Source: a virus (Duplodnaviria; Heunggongvirae; Uroviricota; Caudoviricetes). Taken from it: a stretch of 26,648 bases of DNA. Shown here one piece after another: positions 4,752-11,824 of this stretch. The notes under the pieces were generated by a model, which did not search any database, was not told the DNA's origin, and saw nothing but the letters and a program-made list of their open reading frames with translations. The stretch's first letter is position 1, and each line of letters begins with the position of its first letter. The position numbers were made by a program, and so were the translations under genes. The stretch lies in the IMG/VR virus record IMGVR_UViG_2531839149_000016. One strand, written 5' to 3'.

Positions 4752-4906
4752 ACAGCTCCCCGTTTATTATTTATCTCCTCAGCCAGCCGCTGTGCTTTCA
4801 GGGGATTTCTGATAACAGAAAGGCCGGGAAATACCCAGCCTCGCTTTGTAACGGAGTAGACGAAAGTGATCGCACCTACCCGGATATTATCGTGAGGATG
4901 CGTCAT
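4724..4906 (-). CDS. Hypothetical phage early protein (position of lambda orf60a)
   Basis: 60-aa ORF whose ATG overlaps the exo stop in an ATGA arrangement, as orf60a does in lambda. Confidence 0.5.
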
Positions 4907-5583
4907 CGCCATTGCTCCCCAAATACAAAACCAATTTCAGCCAGTGCCTCGTCCATTTTTTCGATGAACTCCGGCACCATCTCGTCAAAACTCGCCATGT
5001 ACTTTTCATCCCGCTCAACCACGACATAATGCAGGCCTTCACGCTTCATGCGCGGGTCATAGTTGGCAAAGTACCAGGCATCTTTTCGCGTCACCCACAT
5101 GCTGTACTGCACCTGGGCCATGTAAGCCGATTTTATTGCCTCGAAACCACCGAGCCGGAATTTCATGAAATCCCGGGAGGTAAACGGGCATTTCAGTTCA
5201 AGGCCGTTGCCGTCACTGCATAAACCATCGGGAGAGCAGGCGGTGCGCATATTTTCGTCGCGATAGATGATCGGGGATTCAGTAATATTCACGCTGGAAG
5301 TGAATTCAAACAGGGTTCTGGCGTCGTTCTCGTACTGTTTTCCCCAGGCCAGCGCCTTAGCATTAACTTCCGGAGCCACACCGGTGCAAACCTCAGCCAG
5401 CAGGGTGTGGAAGTAGGACATTTTCATGTCAGGCCACTTCTTTCCTGAGCGGGGCTTTGCTATCACGTTGTGAACTTCTGAAGCGGTGATGACGCCGAGC
5501 CGTAATTTGTGCCATGCATCATCCCCCTGTTCGACAGCTCTCACGTCGATCCCGGTACGCTGCAGGATAATGTCCGGTGTCAT
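4903..5583 (-). CDS. exo: Lambda exonuclease (Red alpha)
   Basis: 226-aa ORF matching lambda Exo ([40 protein letters not shown]…GEQWR). Confidence 0.97.
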
Positions 5584-6365
5584 GCTGCCACCTTCTGCTC
5601 AGTGGCTTTCTGTTTAAGGAATCCAAGAGCTTTCACTGCTTCGGCCTGTGTCAGTTCTGACGATGCGCGAATGTCGCGGCGAAATATCTGGGAACAGAGC
5701 GGCAATAAGTCGTCATCCCATGTTTTATCCAGGGCGATCAGCAGAGTGTTAATCTCCTGCATGGTTTCATCGTTAACCGGAGTGATGTCGCGTTCCGGCT
5801 GACGTTCTGCAGTGTATGCAGTATTTTCGACAATGCGCTCGGCTTCATCCTTGTCATAGATACCAGCAAATCCGAAGGCCAGACGGGCACACTGAATCAT
5901 GGCTTTATGCCGTAACATCCGTTTGGGATGCGACTGCCACGGCCCCGTGATTTCTCTGCCTTCGCGGGTTTTGAATGGTTCGCGGCGGCATTCATCCATC
6001 CATTCGGTAACGCAGATCGGATGATTACGGTCCTTGCGGTAAATCCGGCATGTACAGGATTCATTGTCCTGCTCAAAGTCCATGCCATCAAACTGCTGGT
6101 TTTCATTGATGATGCGGGACCAGCCATCAACGCCCACCACCGGAACAATGCCGTTCTGCTTATCAGGGAAGGCGTAAATTTCTTTCGTCCACGGATTAAG
6201 GCCGTACTGGTTGGCGACGATCAGCAATGCGATGAACTGCGCATCGCTGGCATCACCTTTAAATGCCGTCTGGCGAAGAGGGGTGATCAGTTCCTGTGGG
6301 TCGACAGAATCCATGCCGACACGTTCAGCCAGCTTCCCAGCCAGCGTTGCGAGTGCTGTACTCAT
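5580..6365 (-). CDS. bet: Lambda Bet single-strand annealing protein (Red beta)
   Basis: 261-aa ORF matching lambda Bet ([261 protein letters not shown] from memory, near-identical here); ATGA overlap with exo. Confidence 0.97.
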
Positions 6366-6370
6366 CCGTT

Positions 6371-6667
6371 TTATACCTCTGAATCAATATCAACCTGGTG
6401 GTGAGCAATGGTTTCAACCATGTACCGGATGTGTTCTGCCATGCGCTCCTGAAACTCAACATCGTCATCAAACGCACGGGTAATGGCTTTTTTGCTGGCC
6501 CCGTGGCGTTGCAAATGATCGATGCATAGCGATTCAAACAGGTGCTGGGGCAGGCCTTTTTCCATGTCGTCTGCCAGTTCTGCCTCTTTCTCTTCACGGG
6601 CGATCTGCTGGTAGTGACGCGCCCAGCTCTGAGCCTCAAGACGATCCTGAATGTAATAAGCGTTCAT
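6371..6667 (-). CDS. gam: Lambda Gam (short form, RecBCD inhibitor)
   Basis: 98-aa ORF matching lambda GamS ([21 protein letters not shown]…VDIDSEV); the upstream extension that would give the long form runs into a stop 19 codons upstream. Confidence 0.95.
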
Positions 6668-6742
6668 GGCTGACCTCCTGAAAATGGCTGTGAAAATATC
6701 GCCCGCGAAATGCCAGGCTGATTAGGAAAACAGGAAAGGGGA

Positions 6743-7033
6743 TTAGTGATTCAGGCCGTTACCGCGTCCGTCGAGAAAAACTTCCACGAGCAAATCACGG
6801 GTATAAGTGCGCTCGATGCCGCGATGCAGATAAAGCCGTCCGCGTAAATTAGCTGATGCAGTCCAGGTACCATCTTTGTGTTTGACCAGCATTCCTGGCA
6901 TGACCGCGCCGCGATTAACGGTCTGCGTTCCGTAATGTTGATGAACCATAAAAACTCCTGCCCGTAAGCTGGGCTGCTGAACATATAGAGACTTCTGCGC
7001 GTATTCAGGCGGTGGATGGCCGCCGGTTGTCAT
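6743..7033 (-). CDS. ORF at the position and frame of lambda kil (possible Kil-like host division inhibitor); start uncertain
   Basis: Stop lies where lambda kil ends relative to gam; the track gives 96 aa, with internal ATGs at about 6901 and 6892 that would give a roughly 50-aa product; I could not reconcile the first few codons of the track ORF with the printed bases near 7020 by eye; no cIII-like coding sequence follows. Confidence 0.4.
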
Positions 7034-7226
7034 AACTAAGCCGCCTCGTTGAAGCGACTAAGGTATGAAATGTTGAGTTGATTTCAGCTGGTCACACCGA
7101 CGTTCACGCGTCCGTTTCACCCCTCGCACTCCCCGAAGCCTGCTGAAATTCAAACTGCGGATCTAAGCGGTCATCGCAACGGTGAATCAGGTGGTTGCCG
7201 TATCGTTGTGTTGTTGCGATGAACCT

Positions 7227-7255
7227 ATTTAAAACTATAGTTGTTTTACCGTCAA
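7227..7255 (-). promoter_or_regulatory. Candidate pL promoter with overlapping operator (-35 TTGACG, 17-bp spacer, -10 TTAAAT on the minus strand) within an array of GTTGTT(TTA) repeats
   Basis: Minus-strand sequence GTTGTTGACGGTAAAACAACTATAGTTTTAAAT closely parallels the pR region GTTGTTGACTAAAAACAACCATAGTTTTAATCT at 9870-9904; direct repeats AGTTGTTTTA at 7239, 7263 and 7275. Confidence 0.4.
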
Positions 7256-7393
7256 CAACAAAAGTTGTTTTATTGGTTGTTTTAGATATAACTGGTTGTA
7301 TTTAGGATGGATTTATTTTGTGACTTGAATCGCATAGCGATAACTGAAGCGAGGTTATGGTGGTTTTTTGAGCGGTTTGTGTGATGAGGGGAG

Positions 7394-7424
7394 GCAAAAG
7401 AAAACCCGGCACGGTGGCCGGGTT
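7394..7424 (-). terminator. Intrinsic terminator ending the cI / kinase-like / DUF3037 transcript (stem AACCCGGC / GCCGGGTT, then TTTTCTTTT on the minus strand)
   Basis: Perfect 8-bp GC-rich inverted repeat with a 6-nt loop followed by a T-tract, just downstream of the DUF3037 stop. Confidence 0.6.
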
Positions 7425-7457
7425 ATTAATAAGGAATATCACATACAAAAATAAATT

Positions 7458-8285
7458 TTAAACTTGGGGAAGTATTTTTTTTGCAAAATCAATAGTTTCT
7501 TTGTGGTTGGATGCAGGTATATGATTTATTTTCTTAGCATCCATAGTTCTCTTTATGATGTCAATAACTTTGCTTTGGCCTGAGTTTGGTGATTCAGGAG
7601 TTTCAATTGTGAATAAAATGTCATCAAGTGAAAGCAGGTTTTCTTCTGCTGCTCGAGTTATTCTCATCACCCAAGTATCACTATGCTCCATCATTTTTCC
7701 TGGTTCAGCTTGAGTGAATGCCAGAGGTTTGATGGCACATTGGATCCTGTCATGCTTCTTGGCGACCAATGGCATTGAGAACTTTGCGAAATACCCATCA
7801 ATGGTTGCTTGTTTGAAGACGTTCTTCAATCCATCTATTCTATCGATACTTCGTTTTAGCTCTCTGGCTAGAACATCTTCACGGCGCTCTTTTGTGTAGT
7901 CAGAGTGGTTTACATATTTATTGTAAATGCGGGCCAGCTCTTCTTTTGGGTTTTCGCTGAGAATCACTCTCGTAGAACTGAACTGAAAAATTGATTCTTT
8001 TTTGTTTGTAAAATATCTGAAGAATTGTGCAAGTTGTTGATGTCCAACAATCTGGGTCGCATGCATTTTTGCGAACTGTAGTTCTCTTTGTATTGAGTCT
8101 TTTGCTACAGGGAAAATACAATCATCATGGAAAAAATTCTTTACACGAGAGTCATTTCGCTTTGTGAGCTGGAAATCAAAGTAATTTTCTTTTGGCGCGC
8201 ACAGAAGTACGCCTATGTTTGCGAATTCTTCAGTCTCCGCATAAGGCGCATAGCGAACGATGCTATATAGGCATGGAGTTGTCAT
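7458..8285 (-). CDS. DUF3037-family protein
   Basis: ORF starting MTTPCLYSIVRYAPYAETEEFANIGVLL…, the characteristic N-terminal signature of DUF3037 proteins as I recall it; its ATG overlaps the upstream gene's stop (ATGA), implying translational coupling; the track ORF extends to 8300 from a non-ATG start. Confidence 0.75.
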   Translation of the reverse strand: MTTPCLYSIVRYAPYAETEEFANIGVLLCAPKENYFDFQLTKRNDSRVKNFFHDDCIFPVAKDSIQRELQFAKMHATQIVGHQQLAQFFRYFTNKKESIFQFSSTRVILSENPKEELARIYNKYVNHSDYTKERREDVLARELKRSIDRIDGLKNVFKQATIDGYFAKFSMPLVAKKHDRIQCAIKPLAFTQAEPGKMMEHSDTWVMRITRAAEENLLSLDDILFTIETPESPNSGQSKVIDIIKRTMDAKKINHIPASNHKETIDFAKKILPQV

Positions 8286-9031
8286 TCTATTGCGCTCCAA
8301 AATTCATCACAATCACCTTTGTCTAGCGTAGTGCAGACAAAAGGTAAAAACTCCTCATCTACTATCCACTCTTCTGGAATTTCGTCAAGGATAGCAGGAA
8401 GCTTGTGTAAACTGTTAACGACCCTCTGGCGGTACTCTACGCGATCCACTAAATCATATTGCCATTTGCGGTTACCAGGGCCGTACACGTGCACAGAAAA
8501 ATCTTCAGGTCCAGCATTCTGATCAAATGAGAGATTATGGTCAATCAGATAATACTTATCGTTACTGATGTCATAAAGGATGTTAACGTTTCCACCTTTG
8601 TCAGTAAGCGTTCTGTCTGCATTTAATATCCATTTATCAAAAACATAGATTAATTTTTGCTGTTCGACTGGGATGATCGTTTCGTTTCTTGACTGCGTAA
8701 ACGTTAACGCTATTGCACCGTCAATGAACAATGAAGCAAAGGCATATCCTGTACAAATTTGTTGCTGCAGATCAGGTGAGTACTCTATAAGTTCCTCTGG
8801 CACAAATACGATTTTAAAGTCAGGTAAAGGAAGGCCGATATCATTAGCCAAACACGCCGAAATGAACTCAGCTAAGAGATTTTTCGGGGGCATTGATGGT
8901 TTTGACTTCAAAACATACAACTGCCCATCATCACATTTGCAAAGAAATGGCTGAGTGGAACCTTCATTGATGCGACGTATTACTTCAACGACATTAGGTA
9001 TTGCACTATTGCTGCTCGCTACGCACTCCAT
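8282..9031 (-). CDS. Small HipA-like / protein-kinase-like-fold protein (putative Ser/Thr kinase)
   Basis: About 250 aa; kinase-like motifs readable in the translation: beta3-Lys (YVLKSK), catalytic-loop-like ILNADRTLTDKGGNVNIL (D…N), and a DFG-like LIDHNLSF; AAGGG RBS 6 nt upstream of the ATG at 9031. Confidence 0.65.
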   Translation of the reverse strand: MECVASSNSAIPNVVEVIRRINEGSTQPFLCKCDDGQLYVLKSKPSMPPKNLLAEFISACLANDIGLPLPDFKIVFVPEELIEYSPDLQQQICTGYAFASLFIDGAIALTFTQSRNETIIPVEQQKLIYVFDKWILNADRTLTDKGGNVNILYDISNDKYYLIDHNLSFDQNAGPEDFSVHVYGPGNRKWQYDLVDRVEYRQRVVNSLHKLPAILDEIPEEWIVDEEFLPFVCTTLDKGDCDEFWSAIE

Positions 9032-9153
9032 CACTAACCCTTATGTGATTCAAGTCTTCCATCTCATTACTCCGCATCTCAAAGAGCGGTTTAACACTGC
9101 GTGTTTAAAGAAAAACAACAGGCCTATTGCTGTAACTGTTTTTTAGCCTCACT

Positions 9154-9843
9154 TTAACCATGCTTCCTATATGTCTGCGGCATGCTCCCAATAACCTTAC
9201 CGAAGATGAACACCCGGTTCATCTCGTCTTTCTCGATCGGGTCCCACGGTGAGTAGCTTTTGTTATCAGAGATGACCAGCAGCTTATCCTTCATCATTTG
9301 CAGGCGCTTTACATGGGCTGTGTCGTCGTACAGAAACGCATAGATACCATCACCGTCGAAAGATTTAACTGTGATATCAACGAACAGCAGATCACCTGGT
9401 TCGATCGTTCCTGACATGCTGTCACCACGCACGTTAATGATGCGGATATTTTCCGCCTTCCTACCATCGAACATGTGACGAGCATCGTCAAACGAGTACT
9501 CAACCGAGCGTAGAACTTCTACAAACTCACGGTTGATGACTCCCGGCCCAGCACTGACTTCTATATCAAGAACGTCAATCTTGAAGTATTTGGAATGGCT
9601 GACAGTTGATTGTATTGGTTGCACTGTACTGTCTGACATATTTCCAACGCCAGAAGATAACCATTCTGCGCGCACACCCAAAGCGTTCGCGATCTCCACG
9701 ATTTTAGTTGTTTGATTAGCTTTCCCTGTTTCGATTTTCTGAATAGCAGCTTGGCTAACCCCGACCAAATCCCCAAGCGCCTTTTGTGTAAGGCCTCGCG
9801 CTAATCTGGCTTCTTTAAGTCTTTCTGAGAGTGTTGTTTTCAT
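9154..9843 (-). CDS. cI: CI-like prophage repressor (N-terminal XRE HTH + C-terminal S24 LexA-like autopeptidase domain)
   Basis: 229 aa from MKTTLSERLKEARLARGLTQKALGDLVGVSQAAIQKIETGK…; C-terminal GDSM…K motif typical of S24 self-cleaving repressors; divergent from cro. Confidence 0.9.
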   Translation of the reverse strand: MKTTLSERLKEARLARGLTQKALGDLVGVSQAAIQKIETGKANQTTKIVEIANALGVRAEWLSSGVGNMSDSTVQPIQSTVSHSKYFKIDVLDIEVSAGPGVINREFVEVLRSVEYSFDDARHMFDGRKAENIRIINVRGDSMSGTIEPGDLLFVDITVKSFDGDGIYAFLYDDTAHVKRLQMMKDKLLVISDNKSYSPWDPIEKDEMNRVFIFGKVIGSMPQTYRKHG

Positions 9844-9947
9844 AGTCCAAATGTACAACCAAGGTTTTATTCCATCAAACGAAAATGGTTGTTGACTAAA
9901 AACAACCATAGTTTTAATCTTGATTCAAATTAACCACGGAGGTTGTT
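9844..9947. promoter_or_regulatory. oR / pR / pRM divergent promoter-operator region
   Basis: pR candidate: -35 TTGACT, 17-bp spacer, -10 TAATCT, then GGAGG and the cro ATG; palindrome ATGGTTGTTGACTAAAAACAACCAT overlaps the -35; on the opposite strand TTGATG-17-TACATT lies just upstream of the cI ATG (near-leaderless, as for lambda pRM). Confidence 0.6.
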
Positions 9948-10178
9948 ATGAACCCAGCTATCAAAACAGCGATCAATATCGTTGGTTCACAAAAGAAACT
10001 GGGCGCTGCTTGCGAAGTTTCACAGCAGGCCGTCTATAAGTGGCTTCACAACAAAGCAAAGGTATCCCCTGAACATGTCGGCAGCATTGTTACGGCTACT
10101 GGTGGAGTAGTGAAGGCATACCAGATTCGCCCGGATCTTCCGAAGTTGTTTCCACACACCGAAAAGAACGCAGCTTAA
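9948..10178 (+). CDS. cro: Cro-like HTH regulator (YdaS/Cro family)
   Basis: 76-aa ORF divergent from cI, with an HTH (KKLGAACEVSQQAVYKWLHNK). Confidence 0.8.
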   Translation: MNPAIKTAINIVGSQKKLGAACEVSQQAVYKWLHNKAKVSPEHVGSIVTATGGVVKAYQIRPDLPKLFPHTEKNAA

Positions 10179-10247: not shown

Positions 10248-10787
10248 ATGCAACCACTTACATACCAACAGACTAGCGGATTTAGCCCGACTGCGGTGAT
10301 AAATCGTTCTCAAACAAAACAGGTGCCAGGCCACGAAAAAATCCGTGATGCCGTCCGCGCCTGGTCGGCTGAAGATAATCAGGATGTCGTTGCCACACTC
10401 ATTGTGAATGAGTATCGGGAGCAGGGCGGCGGCACTATCGATTTCCCTGATGATGTCAGCCGTGCACGCCAGAAGCTGTTCCGCTTCCTCGATAACAAAT
10501 TCGATTCTGAAAAATACCGAAATAACGTGCGTGAACTGACCCCGGCAATTCTGGCGGTACTACCGCTGGAATATCGCGGTTACCTGGTTGAGCAGGATAG
10601 CTTCATGGCTAGGTTGGCTGAAATGGAAAAGGAACTCAGTGAGGCAAAACAGGCTGTCATTCTCAACGCACCACGCCACCAGAAACTGAAGGAAATTAGT
10701 GAAGGTATTGTGTCGATGTTTCGTGTGGACCCAGATCTGGCTGGTCCATTGATGGCGATGGTTACTACCATGCTGGGGGCGATATGA
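10248..10787 (+). CDS. YdaT-family protein (occupies the cII position)
   Basis: 179-aa ORF; segments EYREQGGG and LTPAILAVLPLEYRGYL resemble Rac YdaT as I recall it; directly downstream of cro with an AAAGGAG RBS. Confidence 0.6.
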   Translation: MQPLTYQQTSGFSPTAVINRSQTKQVPGHEKIRDAVRAWSAEDNQDVVATLIVNEYREQGGGTIDFPDDVSRARQKLFRFLDNKFDSEKYRNNVRELTPAILAVLPLEYRGYLVEQDSFMARLAEMEKELSEAKQAVILNAPRHQKLKEISEGIVSMFRVDPDLAGPLMAMVTTMLGAI

Positions 10788-10873
10788 CAGGTTCAGAAAT
10801 GGCGAAAGCCGGTCTGCTGGAACAGAACCGACTTTCAGGTGCAAATCGTAACACACTCATTGCGGGAGGAATT

Positions 10874-11362
10874 ATGGCAAACACTGCTGAGATATTCAAT
10901 TTTCCAGTGCCGGATGCGGCACAAAAGGAGCCGCGCGTGGCAGATCTCGATGATGGTTATACGCGCATTGCAAATGAGTTGCTGGAAGCTGTAATGCTGG
11001 CCGGATTAACACAGCACCAGCTTCTGGTCTTTCTGGCTGTCATGCGCAAAACATATGGCTTTAATAAAAAACTGGATTGGGTTAGCAACGAGCAACTTTC
11101 CGAATTAACCGGGATATTGCCGCACAAGTGTTCTGCTGCAAAAAGTGTTCTGGTAAAGCGTGGGATTTTTATTCAGAGCGGGCGGAATATCGGCATCAAT
11201 AATGTGGTCAGTGAATGGTCAACATTACCCGAATCGGGTAAGAAAAATAAAGTTTACCTGAAAGAGGTAAATTTACCTGAATCAGGTAAGAAAAGTTTAC
11301 CTAAATCAGGTAAAGGCGTTTACCCGAATCAGGTAAACACAAAAGACAAACTAACAAGGTAA
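10874..11362 (+). CDS. O: Replication initiator O, N-terminal iteron-binding domain (lambda O-like); terminated by an in-frame TAA
   Basis: MANTAEIFNFPVPDAAQKEPRVADLDDGYTRIANELLEA… aligns with the lambda O N-terminus (…NVADLDDGYARLSNMLLEA…); GGGAGGA RBS upstream; the coding region contains the iterons. Confidence 0.8.
   Translation: MANTAEIFNFPVPDAAQKEPRVADLDDGYTRIANELLEAVMLAGLTQHQLLVFLAVMRKTYGFNKKLDWVSNEQLSELTGILPHKCSAAKSVLVKRGIFIQSGRNIGINNVVSEWSTLPESGKKNKVYLKEVNLPESGKKSLPKSGKGVYPNQVNTKDKLTR
11225..11336. repeat. ori: Origin of replication iterons: five near-palindromic repeats of about 17 bp, consensus TTACCTGAATCAGGTAA
   Basis: Repeats at about 11225, 11255, 11273, 11297 and 11320, inside the O gene and followed by an AT-rich stretch, the same architecture as lambda ori. 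Confidence 0.75.
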
Positions 11363-11383
11363 TGCTGCCAACTTACTGATTTA

Positions 11384-11824
11384 GTGTATGATGGTGATTT
11401 TAAGGTGCTTGCGTGGCTTCCATTTCCATCAGATGTCCTTCCTGCTCCGCTACTGAAAGCGGATGCTGCGATTCAGAACGGCAGCAAGTGGGGGACAGCA
11501 GAAGACCTGACCGCCGCAGAGTGGATGTTTGACATGGTGAAGACCATCGCGCCATCAGCCAGAAAACCGAATTTTGCAGGGTGGGCTAACGATATCCGTC
11601 TGATGCGTGAACGTGATGGACGTAACCACCGCGACATGTGTGTACTGTTCCGCTGGGCCTGCCAGGACAACTTCTGGTCCGGTAACGTGCTGAGTCCGGC
11701 CAAACTCCGCGACAAGTGGACCCAGCTCGAAATCAACCGAAACAAGCAACAGGCTGGCGTGACAGCCGGCAAACCAAAACTCGACCTGACGAACACTGAC
11801 TGGATTTACGGGGTGGATTTATGA
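11384..11824 (+). pseudogene. O: Replication protein O, C-terminal (P-interacting) portion, same frame as the N-terminal part but separated from it by a TAA at 11360-11362
   Basis: ORF ends …TNTDWIYGVDL with an ATGA overlap onto P, as the lambda O C-terminus does; it has only a GTG start and no RBS of its own; in-frame with the upstream O ORF. Confidence 0.6.

Follow-up and report, generated by a model that had tools for sequence, protein, structure and literature searches.

A covarying pseudoknotted RNA at the start of the early-left transcript of N-less lambdoid prophages, a candidate for a new class of cis-acting anti-termination RNA

The put RNA of phage HK022 acts without the help of phage proteins, through the zinc-binding domain of the β' subunit of RNA polymerase, and its action is blocked by rpoC mutations. 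In Bacillus subtilis, the eps-associated RNA (EAR) is a protein-independent, cis-acting processive antiterminator RNA. To our knowledge, put and EAR are the only two natural examples of elongation control by RNA alone, and put is the only one of both for which we know of a structure on the polymerase. In its fold, put combines a short triplex with two stem-loops (PMC9378689). Other lambdoid phages, such as lambda and phi80, possess an N gene together with a leader containing boxA and boxB (the N-nut system), and a further type of site, the rrn-type boxA, works with NusB, NusE, NusA, NusG and SuhB. Here, we describe an RNA, further called Element A, that resembles put of HK022 and HK639 in being a structured RNA of about 70-100 nt at the start of the pL transcript of an N-less phage with terminators downstream. 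It shares with EAR the proposal that a cis-acting structured RNA renders the polymerase terminator-resistant, but EAR belongs to another phylum and genomic context and no Rfam family, EAR included if it is in Rfam, matched our sequence. Unlike the rrn-type site, Element A lacks a consensus boxA.

Element A was found in a stretch of 26,648 nt (IMG/VR record IMGVR_UViG_2531839149_000016; further called the window), which is a lambdoid prophage (Table 1). A gap of 424 bp (7034-7457), with the DUF3037 gene on one side and an ORF of 96 aa on the other, contains, besides the terminator that ends the cI operon, a long leader and a pL promoter whose operator repeats recur at pR, the only ORFs inside the gap being 31, 36 and 48 aa long. 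The same gene layout is present in PhiR5_1, a near-identical phage (99.8% over 6700-7500), and in the hand-annotated phage Perceval. A previous reading of this DNA, made from the letters alone (the sequence-only reading), had stated that N, cIII, ral and sieB are missing; the ORF list of the window, which holds none of them between pL and gam, and the annotations of PhiR5_1 and Perceval, which list none, agree with this. At the rexAB position downstream of cI, the minus strand encodes a HipA_2-family kinase and a DUF3037 protein, a pair annotated in PhiR5_1 as HipA toxin and HipD antitoxin, and the cargo of relatives at this position comprises GevT/GevA, a lipoprotein and membrane proteins. 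Homology with phages that have other genes at the rex position reaches as far as the intrinsic terminator of this operon.

Table 1. Features of the early control regions and flanking genes, with positions in the window
Feature	Position	Strand	Remarks
Strong left-operon terminators	4247-4229, 2962-2943, 2928-2915, 2735-2716	minus	before xis/int
exo	4903-5583	minus	
bet	5580-6365	minus	
gam	6371-6667	minus	
kil (KilR-type cell-division inhibitor, 68 aa)	6743-6949	minus	probable start ATG 6949
Kil-family ORF, 96 aa as listed	6743-7033	minus	
Element B, conserved non-coding module	6950-7072	minus	sequence conservation, covarying hairpin
Element B, hairpin by kil Shine-Dalgarno	6974-6960	minus	adjoins AGGAG 6959-6955
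Element B, box GCGCAGAAGUCU	7000-6989	minus	conserved in all three reading frames
Element B, hairpin B2	7024-7008	minus	
Element B, invariant 26-mer UUAUGACAACCGGCGGCCAUCCACCG	7035-7010	minus	uORF start ATG 7033
Element B, hairpin B1	7059-7054/7044-7039	minus	loop UUCAACGAG
TAG codon splitting apparent 125-139-aa ORF	7058-7060	minus	minority allele
Element A, ~90-nt pseudoknotted RNA	7082-7172	minus	covariance model R1, covariation
Element A, invariant GUGACCA	7095-7089	minus	
Element A, irregular hairpin P3	7121-7090	minus	conserved 1x1 internal loops
Element A, invariant core GAGUGCGAGGGGU	7131-7119	minus	
Element A, helix b	7148-7142 with 7088-7082	minus	crosses helix a, giving the pseudoknot
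Element A, helix a	7160-7155 with 7138-7133	minus	
Element A, invariant motif GACCGCUUAGA	7172-7162	minus	
5'-terminal hairpin of pL transcript	7173-7220	minus	ATCGCAAC...GTTGCGAT
pL candidate	7227-7255	minus	-35 TTGACG 7255-7250, 17-bp spacer, -10 TTAAAT 7232-7227
Operator region OL	7229-7285	minus	AAAACAAC at 7283-7276, 7271-7264, 7247-7240
Intrinsic terminator of cI / HipA-like kinase / DUF3037 operon	7403-7424	minus	AACCCGGCCACCGTGCCGGGTT then TTCTTTTGCC
DUF3037 gene	7458-8300	minus	
HipA_2-type kinase	8282-9034	minus	
cI-like repressor	9154-9909 as listed	minus	
pR	9885-9920	plus	-35 TTGACT 9892-9897, palindromic operator ATGGTTGTTGACTAAAAACAACCAT, 19-nt site common with pL
Cro/YdaS-like gene	9948-10178	plus	
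Consensus boxA CGCTCTTTAACAA	10191-10203	plus	directly 3' of cro, nutR position, no boxB hairpin
YdaT-like gene	10248-10787	plus	O and P next

The pL candidate, omitted by a simple consensus scan because its -10 has a T instead of an A at position 2, has its predicted +1 at A7220. Its -10 lies 6 nt upstream of the conserved transcript start ...ATCG, a spacing between -10 and CATCG that equals the one at the annotated pL of phi80 (TTTAAT-N6-ATCG). Among related loci, 40 have a different immunity region, and their homology to the window sets in at 7219/7220, which coincides with the predicted +1 and would be the expected outcome of a mosaic joint at that position. The octamer AAAACAAC is present in nine copies in the window compared to 1.74 expected (0 of 100 shuffles reached nine), three of them at pL (7240-7283) and two at pR/pRM, while an inverted GTTGTT spans the -35 of pL. 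Moreover, a 19-nt site is shared by pL (7229-7247) and pR (9899-9917) in inverted orientation, with 95% complementarity between the two copies. These octamer copies and the shared site bear out the claim of a pL-like promoter with a pR-type operator architecture, and the direct repeats that had been noticed at pL were recovered as one direct-repeat family. An additional copy of the octamer (9112-9119, plus strand) lies outside OL and OR, about 35 bp past the stop codon of cI. The listed start of cI at 9909 falls within the -35 of pR; the true start is probably ATG 9843 (MKTTLSERL..., minus strand, region 9843-9909). A pRM-like promoter (TTGATG, 17 bp, TACATT) would have its +1 at or adjacent to this ATG, and given this placement the cI mRNA would be leaderless as in lambda.

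The pL transcript opens with a hairpin whose local stem CATCG/CGATG covaries in other subtypes (CATTG/CAATG in a Trabulsiella prophage, L099), followed by Element A. All Element A subtypes have in common the motifs GACCGCUU(A/U)GA, (G/A)AG(U/C)GCGAGGGGU and GUGACCA; the intervening sequences differ, yet they pair. Helix a, which begins 1 nt past the first motif and stops 1 nt short of the second, is found as CCGCAG/CUUCGG, CUACGA/UCGUAG, CCCCAG/CUGGGG, CACCG/CGGUG, UCACA/UGUGA and CCAUGA/UUGUGG. Helix b, in which the loop of helix a pairs with a stretch 3' of GUGACCA, is found as UUUCAGC/GCUGAAA, AUCUCAA/UUGAGAU, UAUCAG/CUGAUA and CACCGG/CCGGGUG.

Covariation was evaluated on an alignment of 22 distinct Element A sequences representing about seven subtypes. 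In this alignment, in which the registers of helix b and of the padding were chosen by hand, which favours pairing, 92.0% of the cells assigned to pairs were paired compared to 71.7% in shuffles, and 18 of the 23 pairs showed double (compensatory) changes. The covariation score was 0.528 versus 0.157 (0 of 500 shuffles as high), and controls in which the partner strand was slid were paired for only 25-39%. Helix a and P3 were anchored to the invariant motifs, and the register of helix a was not a matter of choice, since it lies at a fixed offset from these motifs; RNAalifold, run on the untouched MAFFT alignment, independently predicts helix a and P3. The G-U pairs of Element A are compatible with the minus strand only. 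The frequent polymorphisms within the window type are situated in loops, fall on the one mismatch of helix a or turn A-U into G-U pairs. The minimum free energy of the whole 283-nt leader, in a calculation that is blind to pseudoknots, was not below that of shuffles (z -0.2). Element A is very probably a functional structured RNA: the conserved fold sought in the leader by structure prediction and covariation analysis was found with a score that none of the shuffles matched, and the suspicion that the leader hides a cis-acting RNA has been borne out in sequence, structure and genomic context.

The first homologues of Element A came from Scandinavium (L095), Enterobacter (L103) and Trabulsiella (L099) prophages, and pattern scans of IMG/VR extended the family to its approximately seven subtypes, with Escherichia, Enterobacter, Scandinavium and Trabulsiella as hosts. 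One loose pattern scan returned mostly chance matches, a metagenome scan for subtypes other than that of the window added just one true copy, and no named host emerged when two rare subtypes were compared with deposited phages by BLAST. The covariance model of Element A (R1) scored 115.6 bits at 7082-7172, the sole copy in the window; a second copy, analogous to putR, was found nowhere in it, the rightward operon included. A search of the whole window against Rfam 15 at the gathering threshold yielded no match, and a permissive search of 6900-7500 gave chance-level matches only (24 bits or less, E-values of 0.66 or more), none of them on Element A. Element A is common: of 5426 complete E. coli genomes, 2210 (about 40%) carry it, 95-100% identical to the window type and in no case annotated. 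Public records either leave it without annotation or wrongly include it in Kil as an N-terminal extension. The literature that was searched on put-like elements, HK639 and the motifs contained no description of Element A; an earlier one may exist, the likeliest place for it being King et al. 2011, reportedly the first description of put-like RNAs in other phages.

Element A does not belong to the put RNAs. The best match in the window to R2, a covariance model derived from 16 put sequences, lay at 566-622, outside the leader, with 10.4 bits and an E-value of 0.39, and the Element A model did not match HK022, HK639, phi80, HK225 or lambda. Alignment of the leader to those of HK022, HK639 and phi80 revealed no significant similarity beyond the first ~20 nt of the transcript. 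In place of the two stem-loops of put, Element A has a pseudoknot and a long irregular hairpin, with other invariant motifs. HK022 carries both putL and putR as opposed to the single copy of Element A in the window, although HK639 resembles the window in having an annotated element leftward only (putL; 5 kb of the record inspected). Identification of Element A as put was therefore rejected, as there is no covariance-model or sequence similarity in either direction and no second copy.

The position of Element A, on the other hand, is the one expected of put, 3' of an early promoter and 5' of terminators in an N-less phage. HK639-like prophages have either Element A or putL as a cassette in one and the same slot: L103 carries Element A flanked by ...GCCAGCGGCGAAGTGGAG and TTTACCAGCAGCTCTTTGCGAGGGGCTGACGG..., which also enclose putL in HK639, and these flanks (also given as ...GCCAGCGGCGAAGUGGAG and UUUACCAGCAGCUCUUUGCGAGGGGCUGACGG...) are near-identical to those of HK639 putL. 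The slot that holds Element A in L103 is occupied by the nutL boxA in phi80, and another prophage (L226) combines the pL and operators of phi80 with Element A instead of nutL and N. Every subtype of Element A lies 10-60 nt downstream of an operator-flanked promoter. The two RNAs also appear to avoid each other, the put model having no match in 100 loci that carry Element A and the Element A model none in 100 loci retrieved with a sequence pattern for put, of which just a part have a confirmed put. The proposal that anti-termination is RNA-based as in HK022 thus stands as far as the slot is concerned, Element A sitting where putL or nutL would be, and falls as far as the put RNA itself is meant; the function we infer. 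A sequence shared downstream of putL in HK639 (L111, 1410-1445) and downstream of Element A in L103 (1385-1420), L226 and L138, CAGCAGCTCTTTGCGAGGGGCTGACGG, resembles the core of Element A (CAGCAGG...GCGAGGGGTGAAACGG) in a shortened form and falls within the 126-nt putL-like RNA feature of the HK639 record.

The first genes after Element A are variable cargo, coding for an HNH endonuclease, anti-restriction functions or proteins of unknown function, and among those examined no N-like gene was found beside Element A in any subtype. Where such genes lie between Element A and a second conserved module, Element B, they are followed by a canonical intrinsic terminator in all ten distinct loci, with six different hairpins, upstream of Element B and the kil and recombination genes. 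The window type (171 loci) lacks the terminator hairpin found upstream of Element B elsewhere, so that the nearest need for anti-termination lies 3 kb downstream, which weighs against such a role; strong terminators are found in its left operon before xis/int. Taken together, the slot, the position, the terminators, the lack of a partner and the mutual exclusivity follow the genomic logic of a cis-acting antiterminator.

Element B is 80-97% identical in phi80, HK639, HK225 and some 18 prophages from Citrobacter, Enterobacter, Scandinavium, Trabulsiella and others, the Kil proteins of these carriers being only ~38% identical. Its hairpin B1 covaries, with six different stems, all six pairs formed in 14 of 16 distinct sequences and a loop conserved as UUCAMMGAG. 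Element B lies downstream of N and the terminator tL1A in phi80, in an old record of which the region is part of the "t-L1 regulatory signal", and it overlaps an annotated terminator in HK639. It is preceded by a canonical hairpin and T6 tract everywhere but in the window type, where homology begins at TTTCATACC, just past the expected site of the tL1 hairpin. Its company varies, being nutL and N in phi80, put in HK639 and Element A in other phages, and it is hence independent of the type of anti-termination. The uORF opened by the invariant 26-mer at ATG 7033 encodes MTTGGHPPP, in the family MTTGGHPP(P), which is a polyproline stall motif. Further copies of Element B are situated in L110 (2500-2640), L111 (2480-2620) and L093-L109.

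How Element A would work can be proposed as follows. Upon removal of the repressor, pL would fire at ~7220 and the first 140 nt of the transcript would fold into the 5' hairpin and then Element A, in which helices a and b would cross and the invariant strands GACCGCUUAGA, GAGUGCGAGGGGU and GUGACCA would frame P3. The nascent element may then act in cis on its own RNA polymerase, either alone or with host Nus factors, making it terminator-resistant as put RNA of HK022 and HK639 or N-nutL do. The leftward operon could then be expressed without N protein, through kil, gam, bet and exo and beyond the terminators at 4247-4229 and 2962-2716 as far as xis/int. We consider it somewhat more probable than its opposite that Element A is a cis-acting anti-termination RNA of a new structural class. 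The stricter version, in which it would be a truly protein-independent processive antiterminator that replaces N and forms a third class after put and EAR, is proposed more tentatively and falls short of an even chance. Against the anti-termination reading, any mechanistic analogy to put comes down to position, sequence and model similarity being absent, and Element A has a single copy, unlike in HK022. Its invariant single-stranded motifs could moreover be a binding site for a protein.

The rightward operon offers a point of comparison. The consensus boxA without a boxB hairpin at the nutR position suggests that a Nus-factor-dependent, boxA-only type of anti-termination may operate there, and an rrn-type complex may act on this operon through that boxA. 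Gene O (10784-11824, plus strand) contains an in-frame stop at 11360-11362 after ...KDKLTR and a divergent linker compared to the intact 340-aa O of PhiR5_1, and because of these this copy of the prophage may be replication-defective. The replication origin is presumed to lie in the same gene, where iteron-like repeats (TTACCYGAATCRGGTAA) stand in four to five copies (11225-11341, plus strand).

The main rival to RNA-only anti-termination is a nut-like, factor-dependent site. Element A would then combine a boxA-like GACCGCUUAGA with a structured equivalent of boxB and recruit a protein complex that modifies the polymerase, a possibility that we regard as unlikely though not negligible. The protein would be, at the same low probability, an unrecognised phage antiterminator encoded elsewhere or the host Nus factors in an rrn-like complex. 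By our own comparison, the invariant motif CGCUUAGA loosely resembles lambda boxA CGCUCUUA, the slot of Element A is that of phi80 nutL, giving it the same place in the operon, and the perfect boxA at the nutR position makes it seem that the phage uses Nus factors rightward. In addition, Element A (7146-7092) shows a weak but above-chance similarity to the lambda N leader 3' of the nutL boxB (L515, 2655-2710, minus strand; CAGAAGGCTTTGGGGTGTGTGATACGAAACGAAGC...), with an alignment score of 29.5 compared to 19.2 +/- 2.9 (reached by 2 of 500 shuffles). However, lambda and phi80 have the N gene, and no N-like ORF accompanies Element A in any of its subtypes or annotated relatives. Within 7034-7226, not one match to CGCTCTTTA with up to one mismatch exists and the leader lacks a boxB-type hairpin, so that a search for boxA/boxB or put-like elements, as advised by the sequence-only reading, came out negative for both. 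Finally, the large pseudoknotted fold is far from the 15-nt hairpins of boxB.

Somewhat less probable again is that Element A is another kind of regulatory 5' UTR, such as a riboswitch, a thermosensor or an element for stability or processing, unrelated to termination. Like ligand- and protein-binding RNAs, Element A is conserved in an elaborate fold and has unpaired nucleotides that do not vary, and a terminator directly after it is missing in the window type. An expression platform is nonetheless absent, as neither an alternative terminator nor a helix that sequesters a Shine-Dalgarno sequence is linked to Element A; the next gene varies by subtype, which means that Element A is not the regulator of one particular gene; and the interchange of Element A, putL and nutL between shared flanks would be left unexplained.

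A third explanation is that the leader is coding. The leader runs ~187 nt from the +1 of pL to ATG 7033, in line with the initial estimate of about 190 nt running straight into the first gene, but kil most likely starts at 6949 and not at 7033, with Element B in between. The phrog_294 (Kil/KilR) profile matches residues 1-68 of the 68-aa product (E 1.3e-37), covering just the last 68-77 residues of the longer forms, ATG 6949 is preceded by the Shine-Dalgarno AGGAG, and variation 3' of this ATG is almost wholly synonymous at third positions, which is not the case 5' of it. Kil versions of 68 aa do exist among deposited annotations, and the leader accordingly becomes ~271 nt long. A single TAG is all that stands between the 96-aa ORF and an arginine-rich ORF of 31 aa in the same frame (7153-7058, ...VKRTRERRCDQLK...), and this TAG is CAG in 57 of 61 distinct relatives, which leaves the frame open from 7162 (or GTG 7120) to 6743 and gives 125-139 aa, annotated as Kil in several records (Perceval, PhiR26_1 and PhiR47_2). 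An N-like arginine-rich part (MKRTRERRCDQLK...) fused to Kil would then be the true first gene, the window having an amber mutation, a scenario that we hold to be highly improbable. The ORF was considered as an N gene because its KRTRERR resembles the arginine-rich motif TRRxERR of lambda and P22 N, and six of 11 common polymorphisms are synonymous. These synonymous-looking sites are unpaired or wobble-tolerant RNA positions, which explains their appearance. In divergent prophages of Enterobacteriaceae the nucleotides of the ORF are found again 0.4-2 kb away from kil, in different frames and interrupted by stops, and across the family Element A has stops in nearly every reading frame. GTG 7120 is located inside P3, the nucleotides of Element B are conserved whichever of the three frames is considered, the Kil profile begins only near residue 49-58 of the long ORF, and PhiR5_1 and PhiR68_2 are viable phages with the TAG. 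An overlooked N-like ORF, although open in most relatives, was thus rejected as N (MKRTRERR...), given the stops in divergent members and its coincidence with RNA helices, and the arginine-rich ORF is an artefact of RNA constraints. That the conservation merely reflects a recent horizontal spread of one mosaic module with functionless helices is just as improbable, for although the window type is 95-100% identical in so many E. coli genomes that most copies must be recent, the compensatory changes already contradict it, seven or so subtypes with wholly different helix sequences retaining the same pairing and invariant motifs across four genera.

If Element A is indeed an anti-termination RNA, it would add a third unrelated fold acting on the best-studied RNA polymerase and would show how many RNA solutions exist to curb pausing and termination, and it could be tested with existing E. 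coli tools. It would moreover explain how the early-left genes are expressed in the very common family of N-less lambdoid prophages, to which Perceval (from LF82, a Crohn's-associated strain), the PhiR phages and the Bievrevirus phages belong.
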